Shown one piece after another: positions 33,480 to 60,094 of a stretch of DNA of 64,000 nt. The notes under the pieces are model-generated. The model saw only the letters and a list, made by a program, of their open reading frames with translations. It searched no databases and was not told where the DNA came from. Source of the DNA: Dysidea avara (Eukaryota); NCBI RefSeq assembly GCF_963678975.1, contig NC_089285.1, positions 12,026,725 to 12,090,724 on the forward strand, read 5' to 3'. Position 1 is the first letter of the stretch. Each line of letters starts with the position of its first letter. The position numbers and the translations under genes are program-made.

Positions 33480-34145
33480 CACTCTGATGAGTTTATGTCT
33501 TAGTTGATAAGAATATAGTAGAAATCTGCCTGTTAGTAAGAGGTCAGTACTCAAGGTTGCAGCCAAAATATTTCACCCACTAGGGTTTGTTAGTGGTAAG
33601 ATTGAATATCCTATTTCAAGATCTCTGCACTGATAAAATTGATTGGGATGAATTTCTTCAGGGTGGGGTGGATTAAAGAAATAGTAGCATCATGGAACCT
33701 TAGTGAACTGAACTCCGCTGATATGGAGTTCCATTTGTTGAGAACCACACTCAAATTCTAATTACATGGCTTCAGTGATGCTTCATGTCTAGCATAAGGG
33801 GCGGTATTGTACCTGAAAAATATTTATGCTGATGAAGTCTTACCGTAAGAATTGTTGCTGCAAAGACATGTGTGTCTCCAGCCAAGAGTCAAACTATCCC
33901 AATTTAAAATTGGTTGCAGCTGTAGTATTGAATCAACTTGTTGTGATGGTGCATAATTCTCCGGAGATCATAGGCAGTTTTTAGAAACCCTTCTTTGGAC
34001 TGACTCAACCGTTGTAAATCATAAACCTTAGAAGTAGTATGTCAGCTCTCAAGTTATTTCAGGAGATAAGTGGTGTCACCATCCTGGTCACTTGAATCCA
34101 GCCAACATGCCTTCATGTAGTCTATCAGGAAAAGAACTCTACAAC
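33480..34145 (+). pseudogene. BEL/Pao-type LTR-retrotransposon pol fragment (upstream half), with stops
   Basis: 'KIFHPLGFVSGK' and the BEL/Pao signature 'WCHHPGHLNPANMPS' (W.H.PG..NPAD..SRG) are present. Multiple in-frame stops. Confidence 0.5.
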
Positions 34146-34149
34146 AGTG

Positions 34150-34860
34150 AATAATGTAGTGTTATTTTAGTAAGGACTTTTAGTTTATACTCATAGTCAG
34201 TTTCGTCAATAATAATAGTTTTAGCTTTCCTAATTCCTTTTAGTTATTGATTTAGTTATGGTTATTTTCTCTGCGTTATTTTAGTTTTAGTTAAAAATAT
34301 GAAAATCTTTTAGTTATAGTTATAGTTTTAGTAAAATTCATAAAATTGTTTTAGTTATAGTTTTAGTTGTACATAAAAAACGTTTAGTTTTAGTTATAGT
34401 TTTAGTGATCTTTTCTAATTCTTTTAGCTTTAGACTTAGTTTTGGTAAATTATTCTGTTGTACCGTATTGCCTCGAATTATTGCCGGTCCCGTATAAATG
34501 CCTGGTCTCGTTTAGTCGCTGGGGTTGATAACAATGTGATCACCATGAATGCCAGTGTGTAGTATTCATAGCTTTAATAGACATCATTTAATATAAACTG
34601 AAACCTTTGTAGTGTCAACAGAAACCTTTTATAGCTATTAACCTCAGATTTAGTGCTACTTTTGGACAAGCGATTGGTGCTTTAAAAAAATAAACGTCCG
34701 GGCCATAATTCGAGGCAAAACAATTTAGTTTCAGTTATAACACGGATTTGCTTTTAGTTATAATTTTAGTTTTAGTTAACTAATACACATTTGTCTTACT
34801 AAAAGTACTTTAGTTTTAGTTATAGTTAACTAAACCACCATCAAGTCACAAACTATAGCA
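34150..34860. repeat. LTR-like direct repeat, copy A, rich in 'tttagttatagttttag' units; hosts MITE 34465-34730
   Basis: Aligns (~85%) with 52064-53040 once the two different nested MITEs are removed. Both begin 'tgtt[ag]ttttagtaa[ga]g' and end '...gttaactaaa[cg]ca...ca'. Confidence 0.6.
34465..34730. mobile_element. MITE-like insertion with imperfect terminal inverted repeats ('tattgcctcgaattat...' / '...ataattcgaggcaa')
   Basis: Present in copy A of the LTR-like repeat and absent at the homologous site in copy B. Confidence 0.45.
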
Positions 34861-34934
34861 GATATTGATGTTTGAATGTTACATATAGCAATACAGTTTC
34901 ATTCGGTGCTTCGTTCCACCTGTAGAACGTATCT

Positions 34935-35340
34935 AATCAAAAACAGCCAAGCTGTAAAAAAAGGAGTGCGGCCCTTGAAAAGGCTATGGTGAAAAAAGAT
35001 GTGAAATCCAAGGTGGCGGCCAAGAAATGGCTGTGATGGTAGGTTAATGGTAAAAATTTTAATAACGACAATTCAGGTGAATTTGGTGCCGCTTGGTAAA
35101 TTGGCACAAAATTCACCTGAATTGTCGTTATTAAAATTTTTACCATTAACCTACCATCACAGCCATTTCTGGCCGCCATCTTGGATTTCACATCTTTTTT
35201 CACCATAGCCTTTTCAAGGGCCGCACTCCTTTTTTTACAGCTTGGCTGTTTTTGATTAAATTTCACTTCTTTTTGTATTTGTATACTCCAAAGCCGGCCT
35301 ATGGCCAGCTTTGGGGCTTTTAAACCTATGTATTTTTCTT
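34935..35340. mobile_element. FB-1 foldback core copy (palindrome centred ~35100)
   Basis: Arms 'cagccaagctgtaaaaaaaggagtgcggccc...ggtgaatttggtgccgcttgg' and its mirror. Same as 59765-60090 and 60360-60840. Confidence 0.8.
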
Positions 35341-35454
35341 TACCACAGGAAACAAAAAAAGATGAAGCAGATTTTATAAATACTTTAACTCATTCTGATT
35401 TTATCAGTAAATGTACAAATTATATATATAATGCATATATCAAGAGTTCATAAT

Positions 35455-35775
35455 AATTATAAAAAGAGAGGAGAGTGTCCTACTGCAGTATAGCCTGTAC
35501 AAACGCGAATCTCAAAGTTATGATGTAATACCTATAGTCACTTTCAATGTGCTAGTTGGTCAGGCATGTACTCAGCATTAAGTTTCGATGACTGTTGTAG
35601 TTATAGCTTCAATAAGCAGCCTACTGATGACAGTGTCAGCACTCCTTAACACTTTATGTGTTGACATGATATCCTAAAGTAATCAAAGTTTTACTGTATT
35701 ACTTTGAGATACGCATTTATACAGGCTATACTGAAGTAGGACACTCTCCTCTTTTTTATATTATGAACTCTTGCA
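35455..35775. mobile_element. MITE, family 'CAAGAGTT(A/C)ATAAT...', flanked by a 7-bp 'catatat' duplication, inserted in the FB-1 AT-rich arm
   Basis: Terminal inverted repeats: 'caagagttcataataattataaaaagagaggagagtgtcctac' and the reverse complement of 'gtaggacactctcctcttttttatattatgaactcttg'. Flanks read 'gcatatat|' and '|catatattt'. Confidence 0.7.
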
Positions 35776-35809
35776 TATATTTATTACATGTCAATTAATC
35801 CCCACAGGA

Positions 35810-38575
35810 TAATTTGCAGCTGATCCCTCTACTGGGTGACTTGAAATGTAGCTGAACTCTCTACAGGGTGATCTGCTTGTACGTAGATGAACTCTTTACA
35901 AGATTCTCTCTACAGGGTGACTTGACTCTAGCTGAACTCTCTGCATGGTTATCTGTTTGTAGTTGAATTCTCTACAGGGTGATTTGTTTGCAGCTGAATT
36001 CTCTACATGGTGGTTGCTTTGTAGCTGAACTCTCTAAAAGGTGACTTCTTCTAGCTGAACTCTCTACAGGGTGATTTTTTCATAGCTGAACTCTCTACAG
36101 GGTGATTTTTTTGTAGCTGAAATCCCTACAAGGTAACTTCTTCTAGCTGATCTTTCTACAGGGAGATTTGTTTGTAGCTGAGTTCTCTACAGGGTGTTTG
36201 TTTGCAGCTGAACTCTCTACATGGGAGTTTCATTGTAGCTAAATTCTCTACAATGTGACTTCTTCTAGCTGAATTCTCTACAGGGTGACTTGTTTGTAGC
36301 TGAAATCCCTACAAGGTAACTTCTTCTAGCTGATCTTTCTACAGGGAGATTTGTTTGTAGCTGAGTTCTCTACAGGGTGTTTGTTTGCAGCTGAACTCTC
36401 TACATGGTAGTTTCTTTGTAGCTGAACTCTCTACAATGTGACTTCTTCTAGCTGAACTCTCTACAGGGTGACTTGTTTCTAGCTGATCTCTCTACAGGGT
36501 GACTTGTTTCTAGCTGAACTCTCTACAGGATGATTTGTTTGCAGCTGAACTCTCTACATGATGATTTCTTTGTAGCTGAACTCTCTACAGGGTGATTTGT
36601 TTGTAGCTGAAATCCCTACAAGGTAACTTCTTCTAGCAGATCTTTCTACAGGGAGATTTGTTTGTAGCTGAGTTCTCTACAGGCTGATTTGTTTGCAGCT
36701 GAACTCTCTACATGGTAGTTTCTTTGTAGCTGAACTCTCTACAATGTGACTTCTTCTAGCTGAACTTTCTACAGGGTGACTTGTTTCTAGCTGATCTCTC
36801 TACAAGGTGACTTGTTTCTAGCTGAACTCTCTACAGGGGATTTGTTTGCAGCTGAACTCTCTACATGGAGGTTTCTTTATAGCTGAACTCTCTACAAGGT
36901 GACTTCTTCTAGCTGATCTCTCTACAGGGTGATTTGTTTGTAGCTGAACTCTCTACAGGTGATTTGTTTGTAGCTGAACTCTCTACAAGGTGATACTTCT
37001 AGCTGATCTCTCTACAGGATGACTTGTTTCTAACTGAACTCTCAACAGGGTGATCTGTTCATAGCTGAACTTTCTACTGGGTGATTTGTTTGCAGCTGAA
37101 CTCTCTACATGGTGGTTTCTTTGTAGCTGAACTCTCTACAAGGTAACTTCTTCTAGCTGATCTTTTTACAGGACATATCTGTTTGTAGCTGAGTTCTCTA
37201 CAGGGTGATTTGTTTGCAGCTGAACTGTCTACATGGGAGTTTCATTGTAGCTAAACTCTCTACAATGTGACTTCTTCTAGCTGAATTCTCTACAGGGTGA
37301 CTTGTTTCTAGCTGATCTCTCTACAGGGTGACTTGTTTCTAGCTGAACTCTATACAGGCGATTTGTTTGCAGCTGAACTCTCTACAGGGTGATTTATTTG
37401 CAGCTGAACTCTCTACAAGGTGACTTCTTCTAGCTGAACTCTCTACAGAGTGATTGATTTTTTTGCAGCTGAACTCTCTACATGGTGGTTGCTTTGTAGC
37501 TGAACTCTCTAAAAGGTGACTTCTTCTAGCTGAACTCTCTACAGGATGATTTGTTTGCAGCTGAACTCTCTACATGGTGCTTTCTTTGTAGCTGAACTCT
37601 CTACAGGGTGATTTGTTTGTAGCTGAAATCCCTACAAGGTAACTTCTTCTAGCTGATCTTTCTACAGGGCGATTTGTTTGTAGCTGAGTTCTCTACAGGG
37701 TGTTTGTTTGCAGCTGAACTCTCTACATGGTAGTTTCTTTGTAGTTGAACTCTCTACAATGTGACTTCTTCTAGCTGAACTCTCTACAGGGTGACTTGTT
37801 TCTAGCTAATCTCTCTACAGGGTGACTTGTTTCTAGCTGAACTCTCTACAGGTGATTTGTTTGCAACTGAACTCTCTACATGTTGGTTTCTTTGTAGTTG
37901 AACTCTCTACAAGGCAACTTCTTCTAGCTGATCTTTCTACAGGGTGATTTGTTTGTAGCTGAATTCTCTACAGGGTCAGCTAAACTCTCTACAAGATGAC
38001 TTCTTCTAGCTGAACTGTCTACAGGGTGATTTGTTTGTAGCTGAACTCTCTACAGGGTGATCTGTTCGTAGCTGAACTCCCTACAAGGTAACTTCTTCTA
38101 GCTAATCTTTTTACAGGGCGATTTGTTTGTAGCTGAGTTCTCTACAGGGTGATTTGTTTGCAGCTGAACTCTCTACATGGTAGTTTCTTTGTAGCTGAAC
38201 TCTCAACAATGTGACTTCTTCTAGCTGAACTCTCTACAGGGTGACTTGTTTCTAGCTGATCTCTCTACAGGGTGACTTGTTTCTAGCTGAACTCTCTACA
38301 GGGGATTTGTTTGCAGCTGAATTCTCTACATGGTTGTTTCTTTATAGCTGAACTGTCTACAAGGTGACTTCTTCTAGCTGATCTCTCTACAGGGTGATTT
38401 GTTTGTAGCTGAACTCTCTACATGATGGTTTCTTTGTAGCTGAACTCTCTACAAGGTGACTTCTTCTAGCTGATACAGGGTGACTTGTTTCTAGATGAAC
38501 TCTCTACAGGGTAACTTGCATGTAGCTGAATTGTCTATCAGAGTAACTGTTTGTAGCTGAATTCCGTACAGAATA
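35810..38575 (+). repeat. Satellite array; 30/31-bp monomers forming a ~61-bp higher-order unit ('ctgaactctctacagggtgatttgtttgtag' + 'ctgaactctctacaaggtgacttcttctag'), ~45 dimers
   Basis: Direct reading. Uninterrupted for 2.7 kb. Confidence 0.95.
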
Positions 38576-39140
38576 TCTTACAATTCTATAATGGAATAAG
38601 TTATAAACATAGCTGAATGCTCTATTAGGGTGACTGTTCTATTAGAGTATCTCGTTTTAGCATTTGCTACACGTAGTTGCCTTTCGAATCATAACTCAGT
38701 GGTTTGTAATCCAATTCTTCTGTACTACTGCAAGGATTTCTATGATGATTATTCCAGCTACATACTGATTTTCAGCTCATTGCTCGCCTGGTAGATGTGA
38801 AAACTAATTGTTTTTTATTCATAAAAATCGATCGCGTAATTTTGACACAGGTTGCGTTTTGTGTCATATCTCCATGGTCTTTATCTCAATTCCTTTCAAA
38901 CCACAAAAAGGCACTCCTACAATGGTTACTCCATCTACATATCAAGTTTCAACTCATTCCTCCAAGGGGTTTACCCTGTAGGCATGACAGACCTTCGACC
39001 TTATTTTACGCACATAATTGGTCATAACTCCGTGTATGATCATCGGATTCCTACCAAACTTGGTACTGAAATCCGCCTTAATGAGCCCTTCAAGTGTGCC
39101 AAATTTCAGCCCTATCCGAGTACGCATTTGTGTTTTATGT
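38575..39140 (+). repeat. Element X copy 2 (starts 'gaatgctctattagggtgactgttctattagagtatctcg'), truncated at 39140 by FB-1 sequence
   Basis: Aligns with 50283-50383 + 51283-51770 and with the reverse complement of 4730-5290. Confidence 0.7.
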
Positions 39141-39141
39141 A

Positions 39142-39620
39142 AATATTTTAATAACGACAATTCAGGTGAATTTGGTGATGCTTGGTCTTGGCACAAAATT
39201 CACCTGAATTGTCATTATTAAAATTTTTACCTTTAACCTACCATCACAGCCATTTCTTGGCCACCACCTTGGATTTCACATCTTTTTTCACCATAGCCTT
39301 TCTGAGGGCCGCACTCTTTTTTTACAGCTTGGCTGTTTTGAATTAGATTTCACTTCTTTTTGTTTTTGTATACCACTATACCCCAAAGCCGAACCATACC
39401 TCCCTTGTAGAGAGGTCAGCTACAAAGAAATCACCCTGCTTCATCTTTTCTTCTTCCTGTGGTAAAGAAAAAATGATAGGTTAAAAAAAGCCCTAAAGGC
39501 GGCTATAGGCCGGCTTTGGGGTATACAAAAACAAAAAGAAGTGAAATCTAATTCAAAACAGCCAAGCTGTAAAAAAAGAGTGCGGCCCTCAGAAAGGCTA
39601 TGGTGAAAAAAGACCTCAAG
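39142..39620. mobile_element. Rearranged FB-1 fragment (right arm, one satellite monomer, then left arm)
   Basis: 'taaatattttaataacgacaattcaggtgaatttgg...' followed by '...tcccttgtagagaggtcagctacaaagaaatcaccctg' and then '...aaagccctaaaggcggctataggccggctttgggg...cagccaagctgtaaaaaaagagtgcggccc'. Confidence 0.6.
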
Positions 39621-39699
39621 GTATGGTTCGTTTCCATTTTTGGATGTTTATTGACCTCACATTTTCATCCACAATTGGATGATTATTGCAAAGGAACAA

Positions 39700-40440
39700 A
39701 ATCATCCAAAAGTGGATGATTATTGCTCATATCTCTATATAGTGAGAGATTTATGCAACAATCATCCAAATTTGGATGTTTCTTGCCATCCAATATTGGA
39801 ATACATTTGTCGCTATCCAAATTTGGATGTTTCTTGCCATCCAATAATGGAATACATTTGTCGCCATCCAAATTTGGATGTTTCTAGCCATCCAATATTG
39901 GAATACATTTCTGGTCATCCAAATTTGGATGTTTCTTGCCATCCAATATTGGAATACATTTCTGGTCATCCGAATTTGGATGTTTCTTGCCATCCAATAT
40001 TGGAATACATTTGTTGCCATCCAAATTTGGATGTTTCTTGCCATCCAATATTGGAATACATTCCTTGCCATCCAAATTTGGATGTTTCTTGCCATCCAAT
40101 AATGGAATACATTCCTTGCCATCCAAATTTGGATGTTTCTTGCCATCCAATATTGGAATACATTTGTTGCCATCCAAATTTGGATGTTTCTTGCCATCCA
40201 ATATTGGAATACATTCCTTGCCATCCAAATTTGGATGTTTCTTGCCATCCAATAATGGAATACATTCCTTGCCATCCAAATTTGGATGTTTCTTGCCATC
40301 CAATATTGGAATACATTTGTTGCCATCCAAATTTGGATGTTTCTTGCCATCAAATATTGGAATACATTTCTTGCCATCCATTTTCGGATGTTTCTTGCCA
40401 TCCAATATTGGAATACATTTGTTGCCATTCACATTAAAAG
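39700..40440 (+). repeat. Left TIR array: ~60-bp tandem units 'catccaaatttggatgtttcttgccatccaatattggaatacatt..'
   Basis: ~12 units. The ORFs in all six frames here are repeat artefacts. Confidence 0.9.
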
Positions 40441-41984
40441 TTTCTTTGATTTTAAATTGTGTATCGTAAAACATTAAAATTACTTGATGCAATTTTAAGA
40501 AGTTATGAATGATTTCGTATGAGAACAGATGGCGAAAATAAAAGGCGACAAAGTATACAAGAGGTCAACTGTCAAACAGTCAGGTATAGTGCGATTTAGT
40601 GGGATTCCACCGAACTGACACATGCCCACAAGAATACTGCTGTCAAAGGCAACTACACTGGAGAAAAATCACTTTTACGGAATAGCCGCAATGCAATCAA
40701 TTGTTAAGCACAAAAATCCTTATACGAGGCCAAATATTGAATTTAAAACCTTTGCCAAAACTCAAATTTTTAGTCTGCCTGCATTCTTGCCTGCCTCCTG
40801 GCCACAGCTGCAAGGCAAGCAGGCAGCAACAACAGCTTGGCAGCATTGGGTAGACACACCCAAGCTCAAAAATATTTTCAGACCCATTCTCTAAACCCTT
40901 CCAATAAGTTTCTATGATTTATTACTGTATAAGAAGTTGTGTTTAACAGAATTTCCGCTAACTGACTGACTGCTTTCAGCCTAGCATACAGTACAGGGTG
41001 TAGCTCAACTACAGGTTTGATTTCTTCACTATTCAATGTTGCTTCTTCCAGAGATGCATCATGCAATGAGTGCATCATGGACTCACTTTGTCCTTCTTTA
41101 TGTACCTTTTTGCTGACGGTTTTGCCTATTAAACCAACAGGTGCAATGGAATTTCAAGTTCAGTTAGGGATTGTAGAATTTAAAAGTAAGGAAACAAGGG
41201 AGGTTTCCTATAGCTGCAGGTGAATTAGGGATTATCTGCAGGTATAATAGGAAACCTCCCTTGTTCCTTCTTTTAACTTCTATGATCCATATTTTATTGC
41301 ACTTTATTATAACATAATTACGATTGGTGCACCTGTGTATTAAAAGAATGAATGGTGCCTGACGTATAATATATAGACGCACACCCAATCTATCACACTA
41401 TCAATTATCACAAAGTAAAACAGCAGTTACTGCTTGTTTCAAGCTATGCATGCATTTCAATGAACGACAGTATAACAATTGCTAAAAGCTGGCAAATTAA
41501 CACCACAGGCTTTTACCCACCACTGCAGAGCTGTACTACTTACAGCCATCTCCTGATTGGCCAGGGCTCCATGAAAACCCCAGATCGTATGTGTGTGTTC
41601 ACCATTGAACTTGATAAATGCAGCCAGAAAAAACATATTTGTTGTTTCTTACATTAAAATCTGATAGTGAATTGATGTGCATTTGAAACAAAAAAATCAA
41701 ACTTGCTGTCATGGGCTATATCCAGGTTTTGTCAGACTAAGTCATAAATTTGCTCTGCCTTTATAACCTAACTATGATAAATTGCAAAGTTAGAGACCAA
41801 ATGAAGCAGTGTATGGCCACCATGCACTTCATGTCAGAATAATAAATTCCCTGGTTGCATGTGCCTTTTGAATATCCATCCATCTTCTGTACTGTGCCTT
41901 TCCTTTTTATCATTTAGGAGGAAACCATTTTGACTTCAATAAGGTGTTGATCCTCCATGTTAACACCTTCTTTAGAAGAACTAG

Positions 41985-42275
41985 TGATTAAAAAATTATT
42001 AATTCTAAAAATGGAAGTAGGTTCCAGCGATAAAAAAACTATGGAAACAAGTGATATGCATGGTGCCAGGTATTACAACATATAGCTATGTGAGAAAATC
42101 CGTACTTTGACATCTTACCACCATCTGGTCAATTAATGTCAAAGTAGGGATTTTCTCACATAGCTATATGTTGTAATACCTGGCACCATGCATATCACTT
42201 GTTTCCATAGTTTTTTTTATCGCTGGAACCTACTTCCATTTTTAGAATTAATAATTTTTTAATCACTAGTTTCTT
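41985..42275. mobile_element. Palindromic MITE-like element (~135-bp arms)
   Basis: 'gtgattaaaaaattattaattctaaaaatggaagtaggttccagcgataaaaaaactatggaaacaagtgatatgcatggtgccaggtattacaacatatagctatgtgagaaaatcc' mirrors the sequence ending 'aattttttaatcactag'. Confidence 0.75.
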
Positions 42276-42824
42276 AACTTTTTTTGATATAGCATATAGA
42301 TGATGGTATTTTAGTACCTTTGGCTCTGACTGCTCTATTAGAGTATCTCGATCTTGCTGCCGATTTCACACGAGTATCTCAATCTCTCAATTGGAGGCAT
42401 GTACGCTTGTTTTCTGTAGTCGAATACAGCTAGACAATTGGTAATGGGCGTAGTCAGTATACCCGATCGTTGGAAACGAGCGCGTGCATTAGCTAATTGA
42501 TATGGGCGTGGCAGCGTGTTATTATTTCACTTGCTCGTTTAGCTAATTCTAAGCATCTATTCTTCTTAGTAAGCTGTTAAAATGTATTCTGGTGTCCAAT
42601 ACGGCTGCTCTATATGGAAAGTGTCGATTTGAAGTAATTAACACATTCGCATGGTTTCCTTGACTGAAGAAGAAAGACGATCCGTAATTGAAGATAAAAG
42701 GAAAGGCAAAGCGCAGATGGCATACACTCGTCGGAACCCGAAAAGGCACATGCCACCAGTGAGTTTAATATTGTGGCAAAAGATAGTGGTGGTGCGCTGC
42801 TTCGTTTGGCCTCTAGCCTTGCGA

Positions 42825-42880
42825 ATGTGGTCAGGCTGGCAGGCTGGCAGGCAGGCAGGCAGGCTGGCAGGCAGACGAAA
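42825..42880. repeat. (CAGG/CTGG)n microsatellite
   Basis: 'caggctggcaggctggcaggcaggcaggcaggctggcaggcag'. Confidence 0.85.
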
Positions 42881-43381
42881 AATCCGGATTTTGGCGATTT
42901 TTAAAATTCGATATTTGGCTTACTGTAAACGTTTTCTTTTTTTAAACGGTTTGATCATTGTTAGATGGACTATAACTATTCCGTAAAGGTGATTTTGGCT
43001 GCGTGCAATATTTCTGGGTTGCTTTTTAGAGGCAACAATTTGGCGGGCGCCGTCGATTTCATATGGAAACCTACTTAAACAGTACTATCGTACTGTTTGA
43101 TGTATTTAGACAACACAAAATTATTTTAAGGATTTGACTGCCATCAAGTTACAATTTCTATATTACTGTGCATGCGCTCCTTTGTCTGATGTATAGTCTG
43201 GTCACATAGTTAGCTTACGTATTTTGCATAACTACCAACCATCACTCAAACAATCAGTCAATTTAATACTAAGACTACATGCTACTAAGAGAACAACAGT
43301 TTTAAGAGTACACTATACAATTGTCAAAGAAAAGATTACTTTTAAAAATGAGTTGTTAATAACACCTATCAGTGTATATAG

Positions 43382-44138
43382 CTAATGATTCCTGCGTCCT
43401 TTCCTAAGTGCAATGGGAGTGCTTTCTTCACCATCAAGCGGGTCGTATCCCTTCCTTTTTTTTCTAATGGGTGCTTTAGTGCTAGCATCCTCCACTTGTG
43501 TTGTGGGTGCCCGGTCAATATCAACAGGAGGAATATTTCTATCTTTAGGATCTTCTGGCTCCTGTTGAATATATGTTTCGACATCCAAGCCATAATGTGC
43601 ATAACACTTTGTGATAATGATTTTCAGAGCAGTGCTCCAATTCCCTAAAATGAGTCGATTAGTTAAGGCTTTTATAACATACATAGAGCTTACCTTCATA
43701 ATCTGGAGGTGGATTAGTAACACTTTGAAATGGAATGTCATCAGGCCACCATGTAGGCTTAGGAGAACTCCAAGTTATGCCAGTATCCTTCAATATTCCT
43801 CTAATAATTGATTTCATTGTCAACCCGTTGAGGTAACATAGTTTATCTGGCAAAGGTGCAAGAAGTATGGAGGGATTGGTGATTTCTATTTCTTCTTCCA
43901 TCCAATCACTGCTTAATAAGATCTCTTCTTTGTGAGCTTCAATTACCCTGGTAATCCTTTTGTCTCCAAAGACATTGAGGCTGTTAGTTTTCATTGAAGA
44001 GTAGGCAAATCCAATTGCAACTCCAAGCTGGCCAAGCTCTTGACACTTCTTTGATATCACATCAAGCTTTCTCTTCACATCCCTTGCATCATTGTTTATC
44101 TTCCTATTTGCTGCCATCACTTCACTCACTAACTCCAA
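43382..44138 (-). CDS. Second ORF inside the large TIR element; unknown function. Two overlapping frames (43659-44138 and 43382-43741) suggest one intron or one frameshift
   Basis: 159-aa and 119-aa ORFs. A K/R-rich tail ('KAPIRKKRKGYD'). No recognisable domain. Confidence 0.35.
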
Positions 44139-44618
44139 CTGCTAGCCTAGAATCTGACTTCATGGTTAAATACTAAACAGCATAGGTCTACTTCAAACAC
44201 ATCAACACTATTGACACCTCTAAGACATTACTCACCTGCTAAGTATCACAGTGTAAATAATTACAACCATAAGTCTGCTACATCAGCACAGACTTTTCCT
44301 TTATGCCTAAAGGTCATAGAATAAAATTTCACTCTTCACTTTTGGGTGAAATTTTAATATCATGGCAGCTAGGAAAGGAGTACAGCCAAAGCAGTATGCA
44401 GCAAAGAAGAATTTGGTCTGCAAGAAGGTATATACTACAAATAATGGTTTTATGTGTAGTTACTGCATGTTTTACACAGAAAGGAATTCAGCAAAAAGCA
44501 ACTCTAGAGCAAGAAGTCTATCATCACAAGCAGGTAATTTGAAGTGAAATAGTCACAATACTGCCATGCAAATCCACAGTTAGGTGATTTCCCAAAGAAG
44601 ACAGCTTACATTAGAAAT

Positions 44619-46922
44619 TTGAAACTCTCAGGGCGATATTTTTCTCTCAAATGCAATGATGGATTTGTGATAGCCGATTGTGATGATAAAGGGATTCTAA
44701 AAGAGGGTTATTGCTTGGTTCAAAGAAAGGTAGTAAGGAGGACCGATTCTACAGCTGCATTTGCAGTATTACTGTGTTCATGTCCAGCTTCCAAACAACA
44801 GAACTTTAGGATTTGTTCCTTGCCTACAATATTAAAGGAAGAAGAATTTGAAATGATCATTAAAATGGAAGCATCTGAATACTGTATTCACAGCCAGTCT
44901 ATTGAAAATCTCTTTGATGTTTTAGATCATTCTTCGGACAGTGATGATACTGATAATGATGAACCTGTGGTAGACATAATTAGTTTTACTCCTCTCCTAA
45001 TATCAGTATTTGACGGCAATGCTTATGGGCTAGTAGGCCACAAAAGAAGTAAGAAATTGTACTGCTTAACTTGTGAATATGATTGCCACCATGTTACCCA
45101 AACTCAAGAATGGTGCAGTAGTAATAATGTTCACCTAGACTTGATAGAGAATTTCTCTGAAGAATCTAGCTACACCTCAATTTCATACAAGCCAATTCCC
45201 TATCCATTACCTAGACACCTTAGGCGCCTGCATGACAAACATGAAATGGGTAAATGTGAATTTCCACTACAATTAATTCCTTCAGAAAGTGATTCCTCAA
45301 CATGTGCTCATGGAAATTCTTTCAACATGGATGATCCTGTTTCACGTAACTGGATTTCCAGAAAAGGTGTTACAATATACAAGGAAGCTGTGACAATAGA
45401 TGATTTAGAAAGGACAGCCTACTATCGGCCAACAACAGGAAAATGTAAATGCAGACTTGAGTATGATGGACAAGGAGACCTGATCTTTAACCTGGATGGA
45501 AAGCATATGTTTTATTATGGATTTTTGCTACTATATCTCCATTTAATGCTGGAAGGAAGAAATCCCTTAATAGCATTCTATCGCTCAAGCTGTAAGTCAT
45601 TTTACATTCAAAGTGAATCCAAACCAGTTCATGTTAATCTCTTGAGGCAAGCCTGGAATGCATTTGCAAGGTTATTGGACATTAACTGGAATGAATCATT
45701 CAATTGTCACCTATGCGGATTAGCACCACAAACCATTATATGTGATGGCACTCTGATTGGATTCCGAAAAGATTTAGCAAGTGCTGCCTTTTCTGAAACA
45801 GTTCCAGAAGAAGGAGCCATTATCAAAGGAAGCGAACATACTGATCGTGTACTACTCAAGTCTTTAAAATCTAGGGAACTGCTCCTAAAATATTCAGGTT
45901 ACTCCAAACAAAGACGATGCTTGAGCAGTAATTCTGGATTGAACCTGGCTGAGTTTTCCCAGTTTAAAAAGTTATGTAAAAAGGAACAATGTAACGAGCT
46001 TGCAGAATTGTTAGATTATTTATCTGCCGACAAAAATCCCAAGATATCCCCTTCTGAATACATGGAGTTTTTCAACGAGCTGTCTCGCTGCTCTCCAGTC
46101 TGCGGAACTTTTCAAGTAGCAGGGAATTCTCAAGCATTAGAAGCCATTAAAAAAGTGTGTGCTGGTCTGAATCTTAGGCACCCTTCTCAGATGTCAGATT
46201 TAAAAGCTATTCAAGAACATGCTCCAGTTTTAGCAAATGTTTTGCTTAACTGCTCTTACCCTCTACCAAAACAATTTCTTGATTTTATGCAGCTTCTAAT
46301 TTCATATATTTCTGCCCCATTTGGCAAAAGGGATGCACACTTTTCTGAGCCTGACATTGGAAGTCGGCTTTCATTTTTTCCTAACCATCCTCTAGTTCGT
46401 GGAGTAGGAAAATACGCATCAGATCTTAAACTGTTGAGTCAAGAAAAAGACTCATGCCGAAAATATGCTACTCACCACCCTACTTTGACGCCAGGTATAT
46501 TCACGCTATACTGTCCTCATGGAATCTGTTATGGATTTGAAGTGATGAGAAACCATGAGAGCCCAAGAACTCCATTTCAAATTTTTTTTACAAGATTCTT
46601 GCAACCTCCAAAGGTGATAATTTATGACAATGCATGTAAGTTGCATCAATACATCTTGAACAGAGAGCCAGATCATTTTAAATCCACTAAGTTTTTGATA
46701 GACAGGTTTCACTGGAAAGGCCATGTAGGTTGCTCTAGTGGATACAATCTTAAGAATTATTCAACCTTTGATATGACTGCAATAAATTCTCAAGTAAATG
46801 AACAAGCAAATGCTGGACTCCAACGAATAAAATCACACGTTTCCTACATGAAAGAAGACAACTTCGTGTTTCATATCAAGCTGTTTCTTGCATTAACAAA
46901 TAATAGAAAACAGCAAATATAG
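44619..46922 (+). CDS. 767-aa transposase-like protein, possibly Kyakuja/Dileera/Zisupton (KDZ)-type, internal to the long-TIR element
   Basis: Long intact ORF with Cys/His clusters ('CHLCGLAPQTIICDGTLIGFRKD', 'YDNACKLHQY', 'DRFHWKGHVGCSSGYNLKNY'). A second degraded copy of its C-terminus is at 19960-20140. The family assignment is from memory of KDZ motifs, not from a search. Confidence 0.4.
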   Translation: MKLSGRYFSLKCNDGFVIADCDDKGILKEGYCLVQRKVVRRTDSTAAFAVLLCSCPASKQQNFRICSLPTILKEEEFEMIIKMEASEYCIHSQSIENLFDVLDHSSDSDDTDNDEPVVDIISFTPLLISVFDGNAYGLVGHKRSKKLYCLTCEYDCHHVTQTQEWCSSNNVHLDLIENFSEESSYTSISYKPIPYPLPRHLRRLHDKHEMGKCEFPLQLIPSESDSSTCAHGNSFNMDDPVSRNWISRKGVTIYKEAVTIDDLERTAYYRPTTGKCKCRLEYDGQGDLIFNLDGKHMFYYGFLLLYLHLMLEGRNPLIAFYRSSCKSFYIQSESKPVHVNLLRQAWNAFARLLDINWNESFNCHLCGLAPQTIICDGTLIGFRKDLASAAFSETVPEEGAIIKGSEHTDRVLLKSLKSRELLLKYSGYSKQRRCLSSNSGLNLAEFSQFKKLCKKEQCNELAELLDYLSADKNPKISPSEYMEFFNELSRCSPVCGTFQVAGNSQALEAIKKVCAGLNLRHPSQMSDLKAIQEHAPVLANVLLNCSYPLPKQFLDFMQLLISYISAPFGKRDAHFSEPDIGSRLSFFPNHPLVRGVGKYASDLKLLSQEKDSCRKYATHHPTLTPGIFTLYCPHGICYGFEVMRNHESPRTPFQIFFTRFLQPPKVIIYDNACKLHQYILNREPDHFKSTKFLIDRFHWKGHVGCSSGYNLKNYSTFDMTAINSQVNEQANAGLQRIKSHVSYMKEDNFVFHIKLFLALTNNRKQQI

Positions 46923-48664
46923 ACAGGAAAGTCATGTGTACATATACGTAGGTCAGAAATTATGGTCTGAAAAATCGCACAGTATGATCATTTACATGCA
47001 TTGTATAACATGTATTGTATGTTGTGATTGAAAAAGAATGGACTTTTTCACTAGGTTTGTGGTAGTACTGTTTAAGTAATTTTTACCCCTATAATAGCTA
47101 AAAAAAGTCATCGCCATCAAAAATCACCTAGAAATATTATGCACAGCAAAAATTAGCATTAAACGCAAGACAACAATTGTATTCGGTGGAATATTTAAAT
47201 TTAAGAAGTTGCTAATTCTTAAATTTGGTCTGCCTCACCAGTCGCAAGGCTAGAGACCAAAACAAAGCAGCTTATGGTCACCATTTTATTTCACAACAGT
47301 TAGCTCACCGGTGGCATGTGCCTTTTCTGGTTACAAAGAATATCCACCTTCTGCACTTTGCTTCTCTTCTCCTCTTCAATCACATGGTTGTCTTCTTCAA
47401 GCAAGGAAACCATATTCATGCACTAATTTTCTGTATCGACACCTTCCTTAGAGGAGCGTTTTAGTTTTTGTCACCACAAAACCATTTCTCAAGTGTTTAT
47501 ATTCTACTAGTAGAATAAGAAGCAATATCATTAAGTGTGGTAGGGTCATGGATAGTAATTTTGCTGTTTTCGTTGCTTTCTATTGTTTGTTAATGCAAGA
47601 AACAGCTTGATATGAAACACAAAATTGTCTTTTTTCATGTAGGTTTATTAAGTGCGGTAGGTTCATGGCAGTGATTGTCAAGGTTCATGATTCTTGCCAA
47701 AAATACGCATCAAAAACAGACTTGCAAACTCATTGCGTCATTCCATTATGTAGTTCTAAAAGATAGTAAGTCACTCTTCTGAATGTAAATACATGAAATT
47801 AGCAGGGAGAAAGACATCTTGATTGCCTGTCTAGGCCTAATCATGGACTTTTTCACCTTTCTGTACTTTTTCAAAACATCTTTAACCAGGCTGTGGAGCC
47901 AGGTGTCTTACAGACCTTCAGCACTTGTTAAGTGCTGTAAAGCATTAAAATAAATAGATTCAGCAGCATTGTATGACTAAAGTTAAGCACGATTCCGCCC
48001 ATATTTTGTGTACATGTGTGTGTGGCTATAATGGGAACTAAAATGTATGCACTCAGTGGCATTGTGCTACTACCAGTATCTTCTTGTTTCATTATTGTGA
48101 TCCCTACTCATGGTGAAAAATTTCTAATCCAAAAAGTTGGAGAAACTCATAGGATGCTTTTTGGGCCATTTTGAAGTAGAATGCACTCAGTGGCACTGTG
48201 TTGCTATCTTCTTGTTTCAGTGCTTTTATTATTGTGATCCCTACACATACTAAAAATTCCACAGAAACTGATCATCTGCAGCTGTATGCTACCAATCTCA
48301 CTTAAAATAATTGAGGTTTCAATAACCTCTATTTGGGGGACTCCAATGTTTTTGAGTACTGTTTCTATGGGCCGTAAATGGAGGTCGACTTGTTAGTGTA
48401 CTACAGGAAGAAGATATCGAGCTAAAACTAACAGGTACAGCTATAAGGCAATAACACAATTTTTTTTACTCGGGTTTAAATTTTTCGCCTGTTTTTCCGA
48501 GTAGAGGTAAATTAGCATTTCTTTAACAATACCTGGTGATTTCATTTCGAAATTATCTCTAGAAGTCGCATGATAGGTCCTTAGAAGTATTCTTCGTGGG
48601 AAGCTGTACTCGAAAACGTAAGAGTCCCCTAAATAGAGTTTGCAAGACGTCATTTCGGAAATAG

Positions 48665-49260
48665 TCTATATTGGATGGCAAGAACCATCTAATTTTGGAA
48701 AGCAAAACTTACATTCCAATAATGGATAGTAAGAAACATCCATTTTTGGAAAGCAAAACTTATATTTCAATATTGGATGGCAAAAACCATGCGATTTTGG
48801 AAGGCGGAAGTTACATTCCAATATTGGATTGCAAGAAACATCCAATTTTGGACGACAGAAATTACATTCCAATATTGGATGGCAAGAAACATCCAATTTT
48901 GGAAGGCAGAAATTACATTCCAATATAGGATGGCAAGAAACATCCAATTTTGGACGACAGAAATTACATTCCAATATAGGATGGCAAGAAACATCCGATT
49001 TTGGACGACAGAAATTGCATTCCAATATTGGATGGCAAGAAACATCCAATTTTGGAAGGCAGAAGTTACATTCCAATATTGGATGGCAAGAAACATCCAA
49101 TTTTGGACGACAGAAATTACATTCCAATATTGGATGGCAAGAAACATCCGATTTTGGAAGGCAAAGTTTACATTCCAATATTGGATGGTTAGAAACATCC
49201 GATTTTGGAAGGCTAAGTTTACATTCCAATATTGGATGGTTAGAAACATCCGATTTTGGA
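48665..49260 (-). repeat. Right TIR array: the same ~60-bp unit in inverse orientation ('ggatggcaagaaacatccaattttgga...attccaatatt')
   Basis: Reverse complement of the 39700-40440 units. Confidence 0.9.
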
Positions 49261-49524
49261 TGCTTCTTGCATACATCTCTCACTATATAGTGAATCAAGC
49301 AAATATCATCCACTTTTGGATGATATTTGCTTACATAAGCACTCACTATATAGAGAATCAAGCAATAATCATCCACTTTTGGATGATGTTTGCTTATGTA
49401 ACTATAAGAGAGATGAGTAATAATCATCCAAAATGGATGATTTAGTGAAGCATCATCCATATTTGGATGAAAATGTGAGGTCAAAAAGCATCCGATTTTG
49501 GAATTTGACTATACCTGGAGGTCT

Positions 49525-50283
49525 ACAAGGTTATCCTTCTAGCTGATCTCTCTACCGGATGACTTGTTTGTAGCTGAACTCTCTACAGAGTGGTTTGTTT
49601 GTAGCTGAATTTTCTACAGGGCAATTTGTTTGCAGCTGAACTCTCTACATGGTAGTTTCTTTGTAGCTGAACTATCTACAATGTAACTTCTTCTAACTGA
49701 ATTCTCTACAGGGTGACTTGTTTCTAGCTGATCTCTCTACAGGGTGACTTGTTTCTAGCTGAACTCTCTACAGGGTGATTTGTTTGTAGCTGAACTCTCT
49801 ACAAGGTAACTTCTTCTAGCTGATCTTTCTACAGGGTGATTTGTTTGTAGCTGAATTCTCTACAGGGTGACTTGTTTGTAGCTGATCTCTGTACAGGGTG
49901 ACTTGTTCCTAGCTGAACTCTCTACAGGTGATTTGTTTGCAGCTGAACTCTCTTACATGGTGGTTTCTTTGTAGCTGAACTCTCTACAAGGTGACTTCTT
50001 CTAGCTGATCTCTCTACAAGATGACTTGTTTCTAACTGAACTCTCTACAGTGTGATCTGTTCATAGCGGAACTTTCTACTGGGTGATTTGTTTGCAGCTG
50101 AACTCTTTGCATGACTGTTTCTTTGTAACTGAACTCTCTACAAGGTAACTTCTTCTAGCTGATCTCTCTACAGGGCAATTTGTTTGAGCTTAACTCTCTA
50201 CATGATGGTTTCTTTGTAGCTGAACTCTCTATTAGGTACTTTCTTCTGGCTGATCTGACTACAGGGTGACTTGTTTATAGCTG
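49525..50283 (+). repeat. 30/61-bp satellite array (same family as 35810-38575)
   Basis: Direct reading. Confidence 0.95.
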
Positions 50284-51990
50284 AATTCCCTACAGAATAA
50301 CTTGCATAAATACAGCTAAATGCTTTATTAGGGTGACTGTTCTATTAGAGTATCTCGATCTCGCATTTGTTACATGTAGTTGTCTTGTAATTGTAATTGT
50401 AATTTTTAAGCAGGGAGTCCACTCAGTAAAACTGATTTTCAGTGGAGCCCTGAACAAACATACAATAGACACATACAATAACTAATAATATACAAAAAAA
50501 CAAACATACATACACAACTAAGGATACATAGACAAAATTACACAGGAATTAAGAATTAAGATAATAATTACGAAATGACGACAAAGTGGCAGCCCCAGTA
50601 ACAGTGGACTAAGGTTGTTCCATAAAACAGTTCCTCGGTAGAAAAAAGTTTGCTTGCCATAGTTGATAAACACTCTAGGAACAAATAAACGATTAACATT
50701 ACGACTAAGATGACCAGTAACATCCTTCGAAAACTGAAATATATCATGTAAATAAGGAGGAGAAATTCGATGTAAAGATTTAAAAATCTGAATAGCTGTA
50801 TGAAAACGGCGATGTTCAGTCAATGTAAATTGAAACTTGGAACTGAAAGATGACGGCAGCTCATGCATAAATTTGGGATGAATCCTTTCAATCATACAAG
50901 TCTGTTTCACTGTAGATGGAGTCCAGATAACATCACAGTAATCAAAAAGTGGCATCACAAATGCTGAATATAATACACACAACACTGCAGGTGGCAGAGA
51001 CCCAAACCGAATAATTGAAGCAAGCCTTGATCTAACTTTAGACAACATATTACAAATATGCAAGTTCCAAGACAACGCAGAGTCAATTAATACTCCAAGA
51101 TACCGAACAGAATGCACCCGAGACAACACACTACCACCAATTGAGACAGAAAGGGTCTGACCTGCCACCCTCTGACGGCTACCAATGAGCATACAACTAG
51201 ACTTATCAACATTTAAACACAAACGTGAGCTCCCTAACCATGTAGCCACAGAATTCAGATCTGATTGTAAACCAGATCTTTTGAATTGTAACTCAGTGGT
51301 TTGTAATCTGATTCTTCTGTACTACTGCAAGTACTTTCTATGATGATTATTCCAGCTACACACTGATTTTCAGCTCGTTGCTCTGAACGATTTGCCTGGT
51401 AGACACGAAAACTAATAGTTTTGTTATTTATAAAAATCTATTGCGTAATTTTGACACAGGTCGGGTTTTGTGTCATATCTCCATGGTCTTTATCCCGATT
51501 CCTTTCAAACCACAAAAAGGTACTCCTACGATGGTTACTCCATCTACATATCAAGTTTCAACTCATTCCTCCAAGGGGTTTACCCTGTAGGCATGACAGG
51601 CCTTCGACCTTATTTTACGCAAATAATCGGTCATAACTCCGTGAATGTTCATCGGATTCCTACCAAAGTTGGTACAGAGATCCGCCTTAATGAGCCCTTT
51701 AAATGTGCCATATTTCAGCCCGGTCCGAGTACGCATTCGTGTTTTATGGCGGATTTTGCGAAGTGTGCAAAATGAAGAAAAAAGCGAAAAAATTAAAACG
51801 AAATTTTGTTCACTCGTATCTCGGAAATGGCTGGAGCGATTTTCTTTAAAAGTGGTGTGTAGACTCCCTTAGCTGGCCAGCACCTCTCTAGCAAATTTGG
51901 TTCCAATCGGATAAGGGATCACAGAGCTACATAGGTGTGAAAATTTCATTTTATTTCTTCCTGTTAATATACTCACGGGTGGCACGCCGG
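50283..51990 (+). repeat. Element X copy 3 (50283-50383 and 51283-51990), interrupted by a LINE fragment
   Basis: The two parts align to the two sides of copy 2 around 'gtagttgcctttcgaatcataactcagtggtttgtaatcc'. Confidence 0.7.
50383..51282 (-). mobile_element. 5'-truncated CR1/L2/RTE-like non-LTR retrotransposon 3' end (RT C-terminus + 3' tail), flanked by a ~15-bp imperfect target-site duplication
   Basis: ORF 50518-51249(-): '...VRYLGVLIDSALSWNLHI...LCVLYSAFVMPLFDYCDVIW...LERIH..F...RR...FK..H...P.YL..IF'. The tail is (ttacaa)n. Flanks: 'tcttgtaattgtaa' against 'tcttttgaattgtaa'. Confidence 0.65.
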
Positions 51991-52063
51991 CTTCTTGGGT
52001 CGCACGACACACTACCGTGTGTCTTGATGTGAGCTTATACATGCAGTGGTCTGAGCAACATGG

Positions 52064-53040
52064 TGTTGTTTTAGTAAAGAGTTTTAGTTATAGTTTTAGT
52101 AATCGTTCTTAATTCAATTTGTTATAGATTTAATTATGGTTATATTGTCTTTGTTGTTTTAGTTTTAGTTTTAGTTATAGTTTATTAGTTAAAACATGAA
52201 AATCTTTTAGTTATAGTTTTAGTTGTGCATAAGAAAACCTTTTGGTTTTAGTTATAGCAAGAGTTAATAATAAGAGAGGAGAGTATCTAACGCCGTATAG
52301 TCCTGTAACAGATGATTGCACAGAAGTTAAACGGCTTCTTTTCCACGTAACATACAGACTGGCTAGTATATTTTCGCATTTAACCACAAAGGCTATCCCA
52401 GACACAAGGGCGTGCGTTCAACTCGATGTTCAAGTTCACCACGAAAAGCATCGCTCTGTTGCGTAAAGAAGTGTGGCTGTTAACCTCGAAGATAACTCTG
52501 GGGGAGAGTATCTGAGAAACCAATAAACACTGAACCAAAGGCAGAGTATCGCTTCGAATTTTCACTGCATCGCCATGTTACCCTACCTTTGAGCATTCTT
52601 CAATTGAAGGAGCACTGTTCCCTGTACATACAGCTCAGTCTTTAGTTCAGTCTTCGAATATTTTCGAGGATTCATCACGGTGCGGCTAAATTAATTGCGG
52701 TAAGGAAATGAACAAATACTAGAAGCCTATACGTTACACGGAAAAGGAAGCCGTTTAACTTCTGCGCAATCATCTATTACAGGTCTATACAGCATTAGAC
52801 ACTCTCCTCTCTTATTATTAACTCTTGGTTATAGTTTTAGTTATCTTTCTTAGTTCTTTTTAGTTTTAGATTAGTTTTAGTAAATTATTCTGTTGTGTTT
52901 TAGATTTAGTTTTAGTTATAATATGGATTTGCTTTTAGTTATAGTTTTAGATTTAGTTAACTAATACATATTTGCCTTACTAAAAGTACTTTTAGATTTA
53001 GTTATGGTTAACTAAAGCAACACTAGAATAATGGACCACA
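52064..53040. repeat. LTR-like direct repeat, copy B (partner of 34150-34860); hosts MITE 52260-52830
   Basis: See copy A. Confidence 0.6.
52260..52830. mobile_element. MITE of the 'CAAGAGTTAATAAT' family (570 bp, ~50-bp terminal inverted repeats)
   Basis: 'caagagttaataataagagaggagagtatctaacgccgtatagtcctgtaa' matches the reverse complement of 'ttacaggtctatacagcattagacactctcctctcttattattaactcttgg'. It is absent from the homologous site in copy A. Confidence 0.75.
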
Positions 53041-53420
53041 GTTTTTACCACTGACAGAAGACAACTGGCCTAATATGATGTTGTTTGTCACTAACAACAG
53101 ATTACAGATTCTAATTCATGCTGTACTGATCATTTATCTTCATTTGTACCGAGTGCAGAAGAAATGGATGAAGTTAATTGATGAATACAATGTTTTAAGA
53201 TGCAAGGGGAGAATTAACAACTCTTCACTAGCCCAAGCAACCTGTTTTGTTACCACGTGATCACCCTTACATTAAGCTACTAATAACTGATGTCTACCAA
53301 AGAGTTAAACATAGTGGAACAAATGACATGTTGACTGCATTGAGAGAGATTTGGATTCTCAAGCGAAAGCAAGCTGTGGGGAAGGTTGTAAGGTGGTGTA
53401 CATTGTGTCAAAGGATGGAT
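53040..53420 (+). pseudogene. BEL/Pao-type pol fragment (downstream half: region preceding the integrase, HHCC-type zinc finger)
   Basis: 'EDNWPNMM...' then 'LPRDHPYIKLLITDVYQRVKHSGTNDMLTALREIWILKRKQAVGKVVRWCTLCQR' (LP.DH..T.LLI...H....H.G...TL..LR..YWI..GR..V..V...C..C). Confidence 0.5.
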
Positions 53421-53745
53421 TGATCTGCTTACCCACCACTTAGTCTCCTGATTTCAGTGAGGACATCACTAACAAATGCCTGGCATTAATCACCAAGAAG
53501 TGGTTATCAATTTTGCAGCTAACATGCTAGAAATGTACAAGCTATCTTCCAAGAAAGGAACTCACAAATCTAAACCATTGCACAGTAAACTGTTCACAGA
53601 AGACATGTAATTGTAAATATACCTTTATGTGTACAATGTTGTAAATATTATTTCAAGCAGTAAATCAAAATACTATTACATGCTACAGAGCAATAAAATA
53701 GCAATAACACAGTAACAAAGAAAAGCAGCGAACAGCTGAATTGTG

Positions 53746-59730: not shown

Positions 59731-59764
59731 TATCATGTCGTAACTTATACTGTGTATATTATTA

Positions 59765-60090
59765 ATCTAATCCAAAACAGCTAAGCTGTAAAAATAGTGT
59801 GCAGCCCTCAAAAAGTCTATGGTGAAAAAAGATGTAAAATCCAAGGTGGCAGCCAAGAATTGGCTGTGATGGTAGGTTAATGATAAAATTTTAATAACGA
59901 CAATTCAGATGAATTTTGGTGCCGCTTGGTCTTGGCACAAAATTCACCTGAATTGTCGTTATTAAAATTTTTACCATTAACCTACCATCACAGCCATTTC
60001 TTGGCCGCCACCTTGGATTTCGTATCTTTTTTCACCATAGCCTTTTTAAGGGCCGCACACTTTTTTTACAGCTTGGCTGTTTTGGATTAG
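59765..60090. mobile_element. FB-1 foldback core copy
   Basis: Palindrome 'ccaaaacagctaagctgtaaaaatagtgtgcagccctc...gaattttggtgccgcttggtcttggcacaaaattc...' with its mirror. Confidence 0.8.
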
Positions 60091-60094
60091 ACTT

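Follow-up and report, generated by a model that had tools for sequence, protein, structure and literature searches.

What kind of mobile DNA has parted the two halves of a retrotransposon gene in the genome of the sponge Dysidea avara? The question is raised by a stretch of 64,000 nucleotides of contig NC_089285.1 (assembly GCF_963678975.1, positions 12,026,725 to 12,090,724), hereafter called the window, in which an 18.9-kb block bracketed by two direct repeats, units A and B, lies inside a BEL/Pao pol pseudogene. An initial annotation of this DNA had proposed that the block could be a large non-autonomous element of the long terminal repeat (LTR) type with nested insertions, or else a product of recombination. 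In our analysis, the reading that we favour, with a probability of about 0.5, is that of a composite ('macro') DNA transposon, in which a pair of hAT-like non-autonomous elements, lying in direct orientation, carried the intervening DNA along and moved with it as a unit. The window is AT-rich (GC 0.34-0.41) and corresponds to the same locus as contig ctg11867l of ENA assembly ERZ25068803 (99.6-100% identity). The loci used for comparison within the same assembly were L001, L005, L006 and L011-L013, and those from other sponge assemblies were L007-L010. Coordinates of the individual features are collected in Table 1.

A pol pseudogene parted by one insertion

The host sequence is a BEL/Pao LTR retrotransposon, with the PF05380 region followed by the HHCC integrase zinc finger, collinear with known pol. 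A hand-stitched translation of 33.4-34.15 kb and 53.03-53.42 kb matched the Pfam family Peptidase_A17 (PF05380, Pao retrotransposon peptidase) with an E value of 2.3e-24, and Integrase_H2C2 (PF17921) weakly, with an E value of 1e-3. Nine homologous BEL/Pao proteins (P0001-P0009) were aligned, and L001 and L002 served as relatives at the DNA level; the nearest relatives of the BEL/Pao sequence came from a sponge metagenome and from Dysidea avara. The left half in the window ends with '...HLNPANMPSCSLSGKELYNSE*' (...YNSE*) and the right half begins with 'NGPQFLPLTEDNWPNM' (NGPQFL...). The closest homologs, P0004 and P0007 (59-69% identity, from sponge-associated ENA assemblies), are uninterrupted at the break, where they read '...HLNPADMPSRGLSGNELCNSESWWNGPQFLQLSEDDWPNM...' and '...CNSESWWNGPQFL...', and two related sponge BEL/Pao copies read through it as 'NSESWWNGPQFL'. 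Collinearity across the break holds against P0001, P0004 and P0005 as well as against L001 and L002. When aligned to L001, the left flank stops at nucleotide 6245 and the right flank resumes at nucleotide 6246/6250, and therefore the two pol halves are adjacent. The DNA of L001 and L002 at this site is in both cases AGTGAATCATGGTGGAATGGACCACA, whereas the window reads ...AGTGAATAATG, then the insertion, then GAATAATGGACCACA.... The pol halves were once contiguous and were parted by a single insertion of 18,869 bp (34157-53025). The initial annotation was right on both counts, the contiguity of the halves and a single 18.9-kb insertion, and the uninterrupted BEL/Pao copy with which it had suggested checking the site is provided by L001 and L002.

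The pol sequence itself is a relic. In comparison with L001 (blastn and tblastn), it extends over 32527-34156 and 53030-53451, a piece of about 2 kb that is cut off at both outer ends and rich in indels (130 gap columns out of 1491). The right fragment stops at 53451, short of the integrase core. Within this fragment, the alignment of 53078-53177 with positions 6298-6691 of L001 contains two internal deletions of about 185 and 110 nt. Exact look-ups of the open reading frames (ORFs) flanking the site led only to ctg11867l of ERZ25068803, and an alternative allele or haplotig was not found in this way.

An 8-bp target-site duplication

A perfect direct duplication of 8 bp, GAATAATG, borders the insertion left and right, where the initial annotation had suggested a search for a target-site duplication (TSD) of 4-6 bp. 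Related BEL copies carry GAATCATGGTGGAATGGACC at the site. Both copies of the 8-mer share the derived junction GAAT/AATG, which can be described as the loss of CATGGTGG or, to the same effect, as slippage between two ATGG repeats spaced by 8 nt along with a C>A change. As the same derived junction is found in both, the 8-mers were copied from an already mutated target, as expected of a true TSD. Judging from these junctions, GAATAATG is a genuine 8-bp TSD and not the result of two separate events. The target before insertion would already have held the 8-nt deletion, GAATAATGGACC, and the empty site would read AGTGAATAATGGACC. A match of 8/8 by chance, allowing a slack of ±3 bp per boundary, has a probability in the order of 1e-3.

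One could also suppose that there is no TSD, and that two octets that stood side by side in pol beforehand, GAATCATG and GTGGAATG, received the insertion between them and became identical by substitutions. This would predict GAATAATGGAATAATG at the site in close BEL relatives and has the merit that, with both octets kept, the flanks translate to NSE*WNNGPQ, equal in length to the NSESWWNGPQ of the homologs. Four particular substitutions would be needed, of which three are neighbours (GTGG>GAAT), and they would have to build a perfect tandem 8-mer, with the insertion then landing exactly between the octets; the rough probability is below 1e-4. In an indel-rich pseudogene it is far likelier that slippage between ATGG repeats deleted 8 nt and that a true TSD arose afterwards, and we find the absence of a TSD hardly credible.

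The two bracketing units

When the nested elements private to each unit were removed, A and B aligned end to end, with 317 identical positions among 380 ungapped columns (83.4%; Kimura two-parameter distance (K2P) of 0.19). Over all alignment columns the identity was 0.73, against 0.41 (maximum 0.48) in 30 shuffles. The divergence is spread along the unit, and a mosaic pattern was not visible in the alignment. The identity of about 85% initially given for the repeats, and their start 'tgtt.ttttagtaa', agree with these results; the end '...ca' holds for A and not for B, which ends in ...CACTA. The nested insertions that had been noted are likewise present, in the form of a private miniature inverted-repeat transposable element (MITE) in A, a foldback-MITE in B and the large element L in the interior.

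Each unit possesses its own imperfect terminal inverted repeat (TIR) of about 18 bp, T(A/G)GTGTTnnTTTAGT, with 14-15 matches out of 19. The pattern TRGTGTTNNTTTAGT was found at three sites in the 64-kb window, namely the 5' end of A, the 5' end of B and, inverted, the 3' end of B, while 0.49 sites are expected. The outermost 7 bp of the composite form a perfect inverted repeat, TAGTGTT...AACACTA. The outer ends are thereby TA...TA, and of the inner ends, that of B opens with TG and that of A closes with CA; mutation could account for either state.

Concerning the inner ends, the flanks are unrelated to each other, with AGTCACAA after A and GAGCAACA before B, so only the composite as a whole has a TSD. 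A search of the inner junctions for traces of a third unit or of a TSD was negative: neither the 87 bp following A nor the 120 bp preceding B exceeded shuffled sequence in similarity to the unit. The resemblance 'AGCAACA/TGGTGTT' at these junctions was attributed to chance. A tandem MITE dimer arising from unequal exchange at the TSD was ruled out, the inner flanks not being GAATAATG.

A proposed composite hAT-like transposon

An 8-bp TSD and short TIRs beginning with YARNG are the signature of the hAT superfamily (PMC3014272; PMC3942097). The units start with TAGTG or TGGTG, of which TAGTG fits YARNG, and the 8-bp TSD is present, for the composite only. The centre of the TSD is TA, which fits the target consensus nnnTAnnn of the Buster family; TIRs of hAT elements measure 5-27 bp (PMC3517528). 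By these features, A and B appear to be copies of one and the same non-autonomous element of the hAT type. They resemble hAT MITEs such as Mar of Drosophila willistoni, from the Buster family (PMC3517528), in being short, AT-rich and non-coding, with a YARNG TIR and an 8-bp TSD with central TA. They differ from them in that the internal motifs are nearly all in one orientation and that neither solo copies nor an autonomous partner were seen. The CACTA superfamily was also considered and rejected: its elements have the ends CACTA...TAGTG, of which the TAGTG...CACTA seen here is the reverse, and they make TSDs of 3 bp, against 8 bp here.

The arrangement of the two units is that of a composite. 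They are direct elements of the same family, the outer ends comprise one 5' end and one 3' end, a single TSD surrounds the whole with none shared by the inner ends, and the empty-site sequence is contiguous in relatives. Ac/Ds macrotransposons of maize are described as segments of 10-28 kb that combine one element's 5' end with the 3' end of a neighbouring element, and that excise and reinsert with 8-bp TSDs (PMC9910405, citing Huang & Dooner 2008 and Wang et al. 2022). The maize cases, as described there, have in common with our locus two hAT-type direct elements whose outer 5' and 3' ends act as one, several to tens of kilobases carried along, and a single 8-bp TSD with inner ends devoid of a matching TSD. 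Compared with the same account, the ends here are non-coding units of about 400 bp from an uncharacterised family, 17% diverged, and the insertion, instead of being followed in a pedigree, is of old date and fixed in the assembly, with no known transposase, donor site or excision footprint.

The following course of events would lead to the present structure. Two non-autonomous hAT-like copies of about 400 bp would have stood in the same orientation astride satellite-rich DNA. A transposase acting in trans would have paired TAGTGTT..., at the 5' end of the left copy, with ...AACACTA, at the 3' end of the right copy, and the whole block would have been excised and pasted into the already decayed BEL/Pao pol, duplicating 8 bp of target (GAATAATG). 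Later, each unit would have gained its private MITE, and a young 9.9-kb KDZ-type transposon would have entered the interior, which would also have gone through at least one rearrangement. We infer the hAT family assignment, the separateness of the units before the move and the order of the nested events. Mobilisation of intervening DNA by two small mobile copies is also known from bacterial composite transposons (Tn9, with IS1 copies in direct orientation) and from the giant 'TE' of Drosophila flanked by FB elements; these involve other transposase families and hosts, and the analogy goes no further.

A number of observations weigh against the composite hAT-like transposon. The hAT assignment depends on one TSD and one terminal motif, and the TIR at the 3' end of A is degraded, matching the pattern at 15/19 positions. 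The unit is strand-asymmetric, with 17-19 forward TTTAGT(TA) motifs against 2 in reverse, the latter near the 3' end, and such one-directional motifs are unlike the mirror-image subterminal repeats usual in hAT elements. A search with an nhmmer profile found no further copies of A/B in the window and the loci of the same assembly (about 104 kb) or in L007-L010, and a mobile family of such units, with solo copies bearing 8-bp TSDs of their own, is therefore putative. An exact 22-mer scan of metagenome contigs from JGI gave two matches that shared nothing beyond the 22-mer, which we regard as chance. No hAT transposase was found in the window, whose transposase ORFs are of the KDZ type and the PIF/Harbinger type. 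The start of the satellite block is separated from A by about 110 bp and its end from B by 30 bp, a suspiciously close fit. The target before insertion requires an 8-nt deletion, the same number as the length of the TSD; we attribute this equality to the 8-nt spacing of ATGG in an indel-rich pseudogene. Finally, two copies of an apparently rare element within a few kilobases and in the same orientation make a coincidence that an LTR structure avoids. Local hopping is typical of hAT elements and would ease it.

Other explanations of the block

LTR retroelements and retroviruses make duplications of 4-6 bp, have TG...CA ends, and carry a primer-binding site (PBS) and a polypurine tract (PPT) just inside the LTRs. 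A positive control was available at positions 2224-8397 of L001, a nearly intact BEL/Pao element of the same assembly, with LTRs of 163-175 bp (98.8% identical, TG...CA), a 5-bp TSD (ACTCT), GGGAG ahead of the 3' LTR and, two bases past the end of the 5' LTR, the PBS TGGCGCCCAACGTGGGGC. In this light we examined whether the block might be an old non-autonomous LTR retrotransposon resembling a large retrotransposon derivative (LARD) or a terminal-repeat retrotransposon in miniature (TRIM), classes reportedly described by Kalendar et al. in 2004 and by Witte et al. in 2001, with A and B as LTRs that were identical at insertion and are now 17% diverged, and with an interior made up almost wholly of later nested insertions. 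The architecture is the classic one: direct terminal repeats of a few hundred base pairs around a non-coding interior, a flanking duplication and a platform for nested insertions, all as in LARD and TRIM elements and with no need for the coincidence of two elements. B does start with TG and A does end with CA, about 140 bp of interior, a TRIM-like size, remain when the recognised repeats are subtracted, and even at K = 0.19 an intact 8/8 TSD would persist with a probability of about 0.2. The duplication, however, is 8 bp and not 4-6 (typically 5) as in LARD and TRIM elements, the control BEL element having 5 bp; the outer ends are TA...TA rather than TG...CA; and each repeat has a long TIR of its own, matching at 15/18-19 positions and beginning with YARNG. 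A TGG-initiated PBS is absent within the 87 bp after A (34843), where the sequence is AGTCACAAACTATAGCAG, and a PPT is absent before 52061, where it is GCAGTGGTCTGAGCAACA. No domain of reverse transcriptase (RT), RNase H, integrase (IN), protease or gag was detected with Pfam in the interior ORFs of at least 90 aa, nor were these domains detected in stop-free six-frame pieces of at least 30 aa covering most of the non-satellite interior, on the plus strand only for 34844-35900 and 38560-39760. BEL proteins matched the flanks only and nothing between the repeats. The absence of gag and pol between the repeats had been stated correctly at the outset; the LARD-like element that was built upon it is at odds with the 8-bp TSD, the YARNG TIRs and the inner ends, where neither the PBS nor the PPT that it called for is present. 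The 18.9-kb block as an LTR-type (LARD-like) retroelement is not supported, and an old LTR element of this kind seems to us quite unlikely.

Two further explanations keep the TSD. According to one, which we rate as unlikely while keeping it in view, a single MITE of about 400 bp inserted in pol with the 8-bp TSD, and later homologous recombination with a second copy put foreign DNA inside, by way of a circular DNA with one MITE copy, or through an ectopic locus with which it underwent gene conversion or double crossover, leaving a chimeric MITE copy at each end. Recombination of this sort yields the layout of TSD, unit, foreign DNA, unit and TSD, with inner flanks unrelated to the target, and the interior did undergo rearrangement of the recombination type, in that element L has no TSD here while its 99.74% identical copy elsewhere is flanked by CATTATGGG. 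It needs a rare class of event, whereas macrotransposition mediated by transposase is documented for elements with 8-bp TSDs, and the alignment of A and B lacks the mosaic pattern of chimeric copies. From one locus, recombination and the composite transposon are indistinguishable. The fallback of the initial annotation, a recombination product, may hold for the interior, which shows at least one rearrangement. According to the other explanation, A and B are the two ends of one undescribed cut-and-paste element with native terminal direct repeats of about 400 bp, each ending in short inverted repeats. That only two copies of the unit were seen, exactly at both ends, would fit, as would the strand asymmetry, which suits a directional end structure. 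We know of no element family with such ends, a candidate for its own transposase is missing inside, the sole intact ORF belonging to L with its different ends and recent arrival, and TIRs of the 5' type and of the 3' type are present together in each unit, as they would be in an independent element. We hold this possibility to be very improbable.

The interior of the insertion

The features between and around the units are listed in Table 1. Next to A lie foldback and foldback-MITE elements, followed by a satellite array; a second satellite array precedes B, and element L separates the two.

Table 1. Positions in the window of the split pol pseudogene, the target-site duplication, the bracketing units and the elements between them
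Feature	Position	Strand	Description
BEL/Pao pol pseudogene, left fragment	32527..34148	+	C-terminal RT, 'Peptidase_A17' region, to ...NPANMPSCSLSGKELYNS; PF05380; blastn/tblastn with L001/L002; alignment of P0001-P0009
TSD, copy 1	34149..34156	.	GAATAATG; same 8-nt deletion junction as copy 2 relative to homolog GAATCATGGTGGAATGG
Repeat unit A	34157..34843	+	428 bp without nested element; 5' TAGTGTTATTTTAGT, 3' ...AACTAAACCACCATCA; T-rich; 19 forward TTTAGT motifs
Nested MITE private to A	~34465..34721	.	~257 bp; ~22-bp TIR GT(A/T)TTGCCTCGAATTAT.GCC; missing from B in alignment
Interior beside A	34844..34930	.	87 bp, unassigned; no PBS, no similarity to unit
Foldback FB1	34931..35440	.	Palindrome 34931-35261, 95% self-complementary
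Foldback-MITE	35441..35773	.	TIR CAAGAGTT..AGAGAGGAGAGT; 7-bp TSD CATATAT; family of the nested element of B
S1	35813..39139	+	31-bp satellite array (~35813-38579) and 'X' tail (38488-39139), truncated by FB2; TRF, self-blast
Foldback FB2	39139..39613	.	Right side truncated by element L
Element L	39614..49521	+	9.9-kb DNA transposon; inverted arrays of 51-bp tandem repeat at ends (39763-40435, 48668-49260)
ORF of element L	44619..46922	+	Intact, 767 aa; KDZ (Kyakuja-Dileera-Zisupton)-type transposase via homologs
S2	49522..52030	+	31-bp satellite 49522-50386 and X tail 51278-~52030; split by 0.9-kb insert 50387-51277
Interior beside B	52031..52060	.	30 bp, unassigned; no PPT
Repeat unit B	52061..53025	+	388 bp without nested element; 5' TGGTGTTGTTTTAGT, 3' ...ACTAAAGCAACACTA
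Nested foldback-MITE private to B	52258..52834		570 bp (52258-52827) and 7-bp TSD GTTATAG; 118-bp TIRs, 87% identical
TSD, copy 2	53026..53033	.	GAATAATG
BEL/Pao pol pseudogene, right fragment	53034..53451	+	NGPQFL... to HHCC zinc finger; two internal deletions relative to L001; integrase core missing

The foldback family has four members in the window (34931-35440, 39139-39613, 59764-60098 and 60269-60938), near-perfect palindromes of 330-670 bp that are 88-95% identical to one another. The foldback-MITE family has two (35441-35773 and 52258-52827), with TIRs of up to 118 bp and the 7-bp duplications CATATAT and GTTATAG. An abundant composite repeat, 'S', consists of a 31-bp satellite array (CTCTCTACAGGGTGATTTGTTTGTAGCTGAA) followed by a unique tail of about 750 bp, and the tail has a conserved ORF of about 100 aa (38852-39142 and 51470-51775). 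Four S copies are found in the window, at 4852-5476 (minus strand), 35813-39139, 49522-52030 and 62316-64000, the last continuing into L013 to about position 18538, and foldback elements often lie in or beside the S satellite.

Members of the foldback and S families also lie beyond the block, in the stretches 4.8-5.5 kb and 59.7-64 kb, and the cargo looks like ordinary local genome. The possibility that the satellite and X tail are the native interior of an A...B family was ruled out, as other S copies occur without the A/B unit at their ends. The insert within S2 at 50387-51277 contains an ORF of 243 aa (50518-51249, minus strand). The label 'LINE' (long interspersed nuclear element) given to this insert was not confirmed: it had no Pfam match even at E<=5, and no match to a LINE in another sponge locus.

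Element L

The 767-aa ORF of L itself has no Pfam match, and its assignment comes from homologs with 42-54% identity that carry PF18758 and PF18717 (KDZ, CxC4). A second copy of L, 99.74% identical, is located on another contig of the same assembly (L005, 5106-14852), where it is flanked on both sides by CATTATGGG. Because of this nearly identical copy, L is probably still active. A TSD around L is missing from the window, where L adjoins the truncated FB2 on the left and satellite on the right, and this indicates at least one later rearrangement of the interior. The 8 bases outside AGGTAT...ATACCT of L are mutually inverted in the window, AGACCTCA and GGAGGTCT. Taken at face value, the sequence indicates that L is a recent arrival and that the interior may have been rearranged since, for instance through recombination of one L copy with another, unless the contig was joined there in assembly. 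The block was at most about 9 kb in size when it moved.

Mobilisation of A and B by L was ruled out, as the ends of L (AGGTATGG...CCTGRAGG) are unrelated and its arrival recent. Within L, an ORF of 159 aa (43659-44138, minus strand) lies antisense to the transposase; it weakly resembles the DNA-binding domain of Nrf1/EWG (PF10491), at an E value of 2e-4 that falls short of the Pfam cut-off.

Other mobile elements in the window

Away from the block, a YqaJ-like viral recombinase/exonuclease domain is present in two long ORFs of the window, in one of them together with a SAP domain, and these ORFs adjoin ORFs for transposases of the PIF/Harbinger type (DDE_Tnp_4). The coordinates of these YqaJ-like and DDE_Tnp_4 ORFs are 7641-9233 and 14937-16667 on the plus strand, and 9303-10736 and 17738-18328 on the minus strand. 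They may represent a pair of transposons, or a larger mobile element with an exonuclease.

Discussion

We see an even chance that the locus records a natural macrotransposition that became fixed in an early-branching animal, in which two hAT-like miniature elements carried several kilobases of cargo rich in satellite and foldback sequence into another transposon. For annotation, the locus carries a warning: direct terminal repeats together with a flanking duplication are insufficient to call an LTR element. It is by the length of the TSD, the terminal motif, the PBS and the PPT that a composite DNA transposon and a derivative of an LTR element can be told apart. The composite hAT-like transposon does not open a new mechanism; it would add a case to a kind already known, and is more a curiosity than a novel type of element. 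If true, it would be a rare natural example outside maize of a pair of transposons carrying kilobases of DNA, here with a satellite array, and would point to a route by which blocks of satellite, and regulatory DNA, could be moved around animal genomes.

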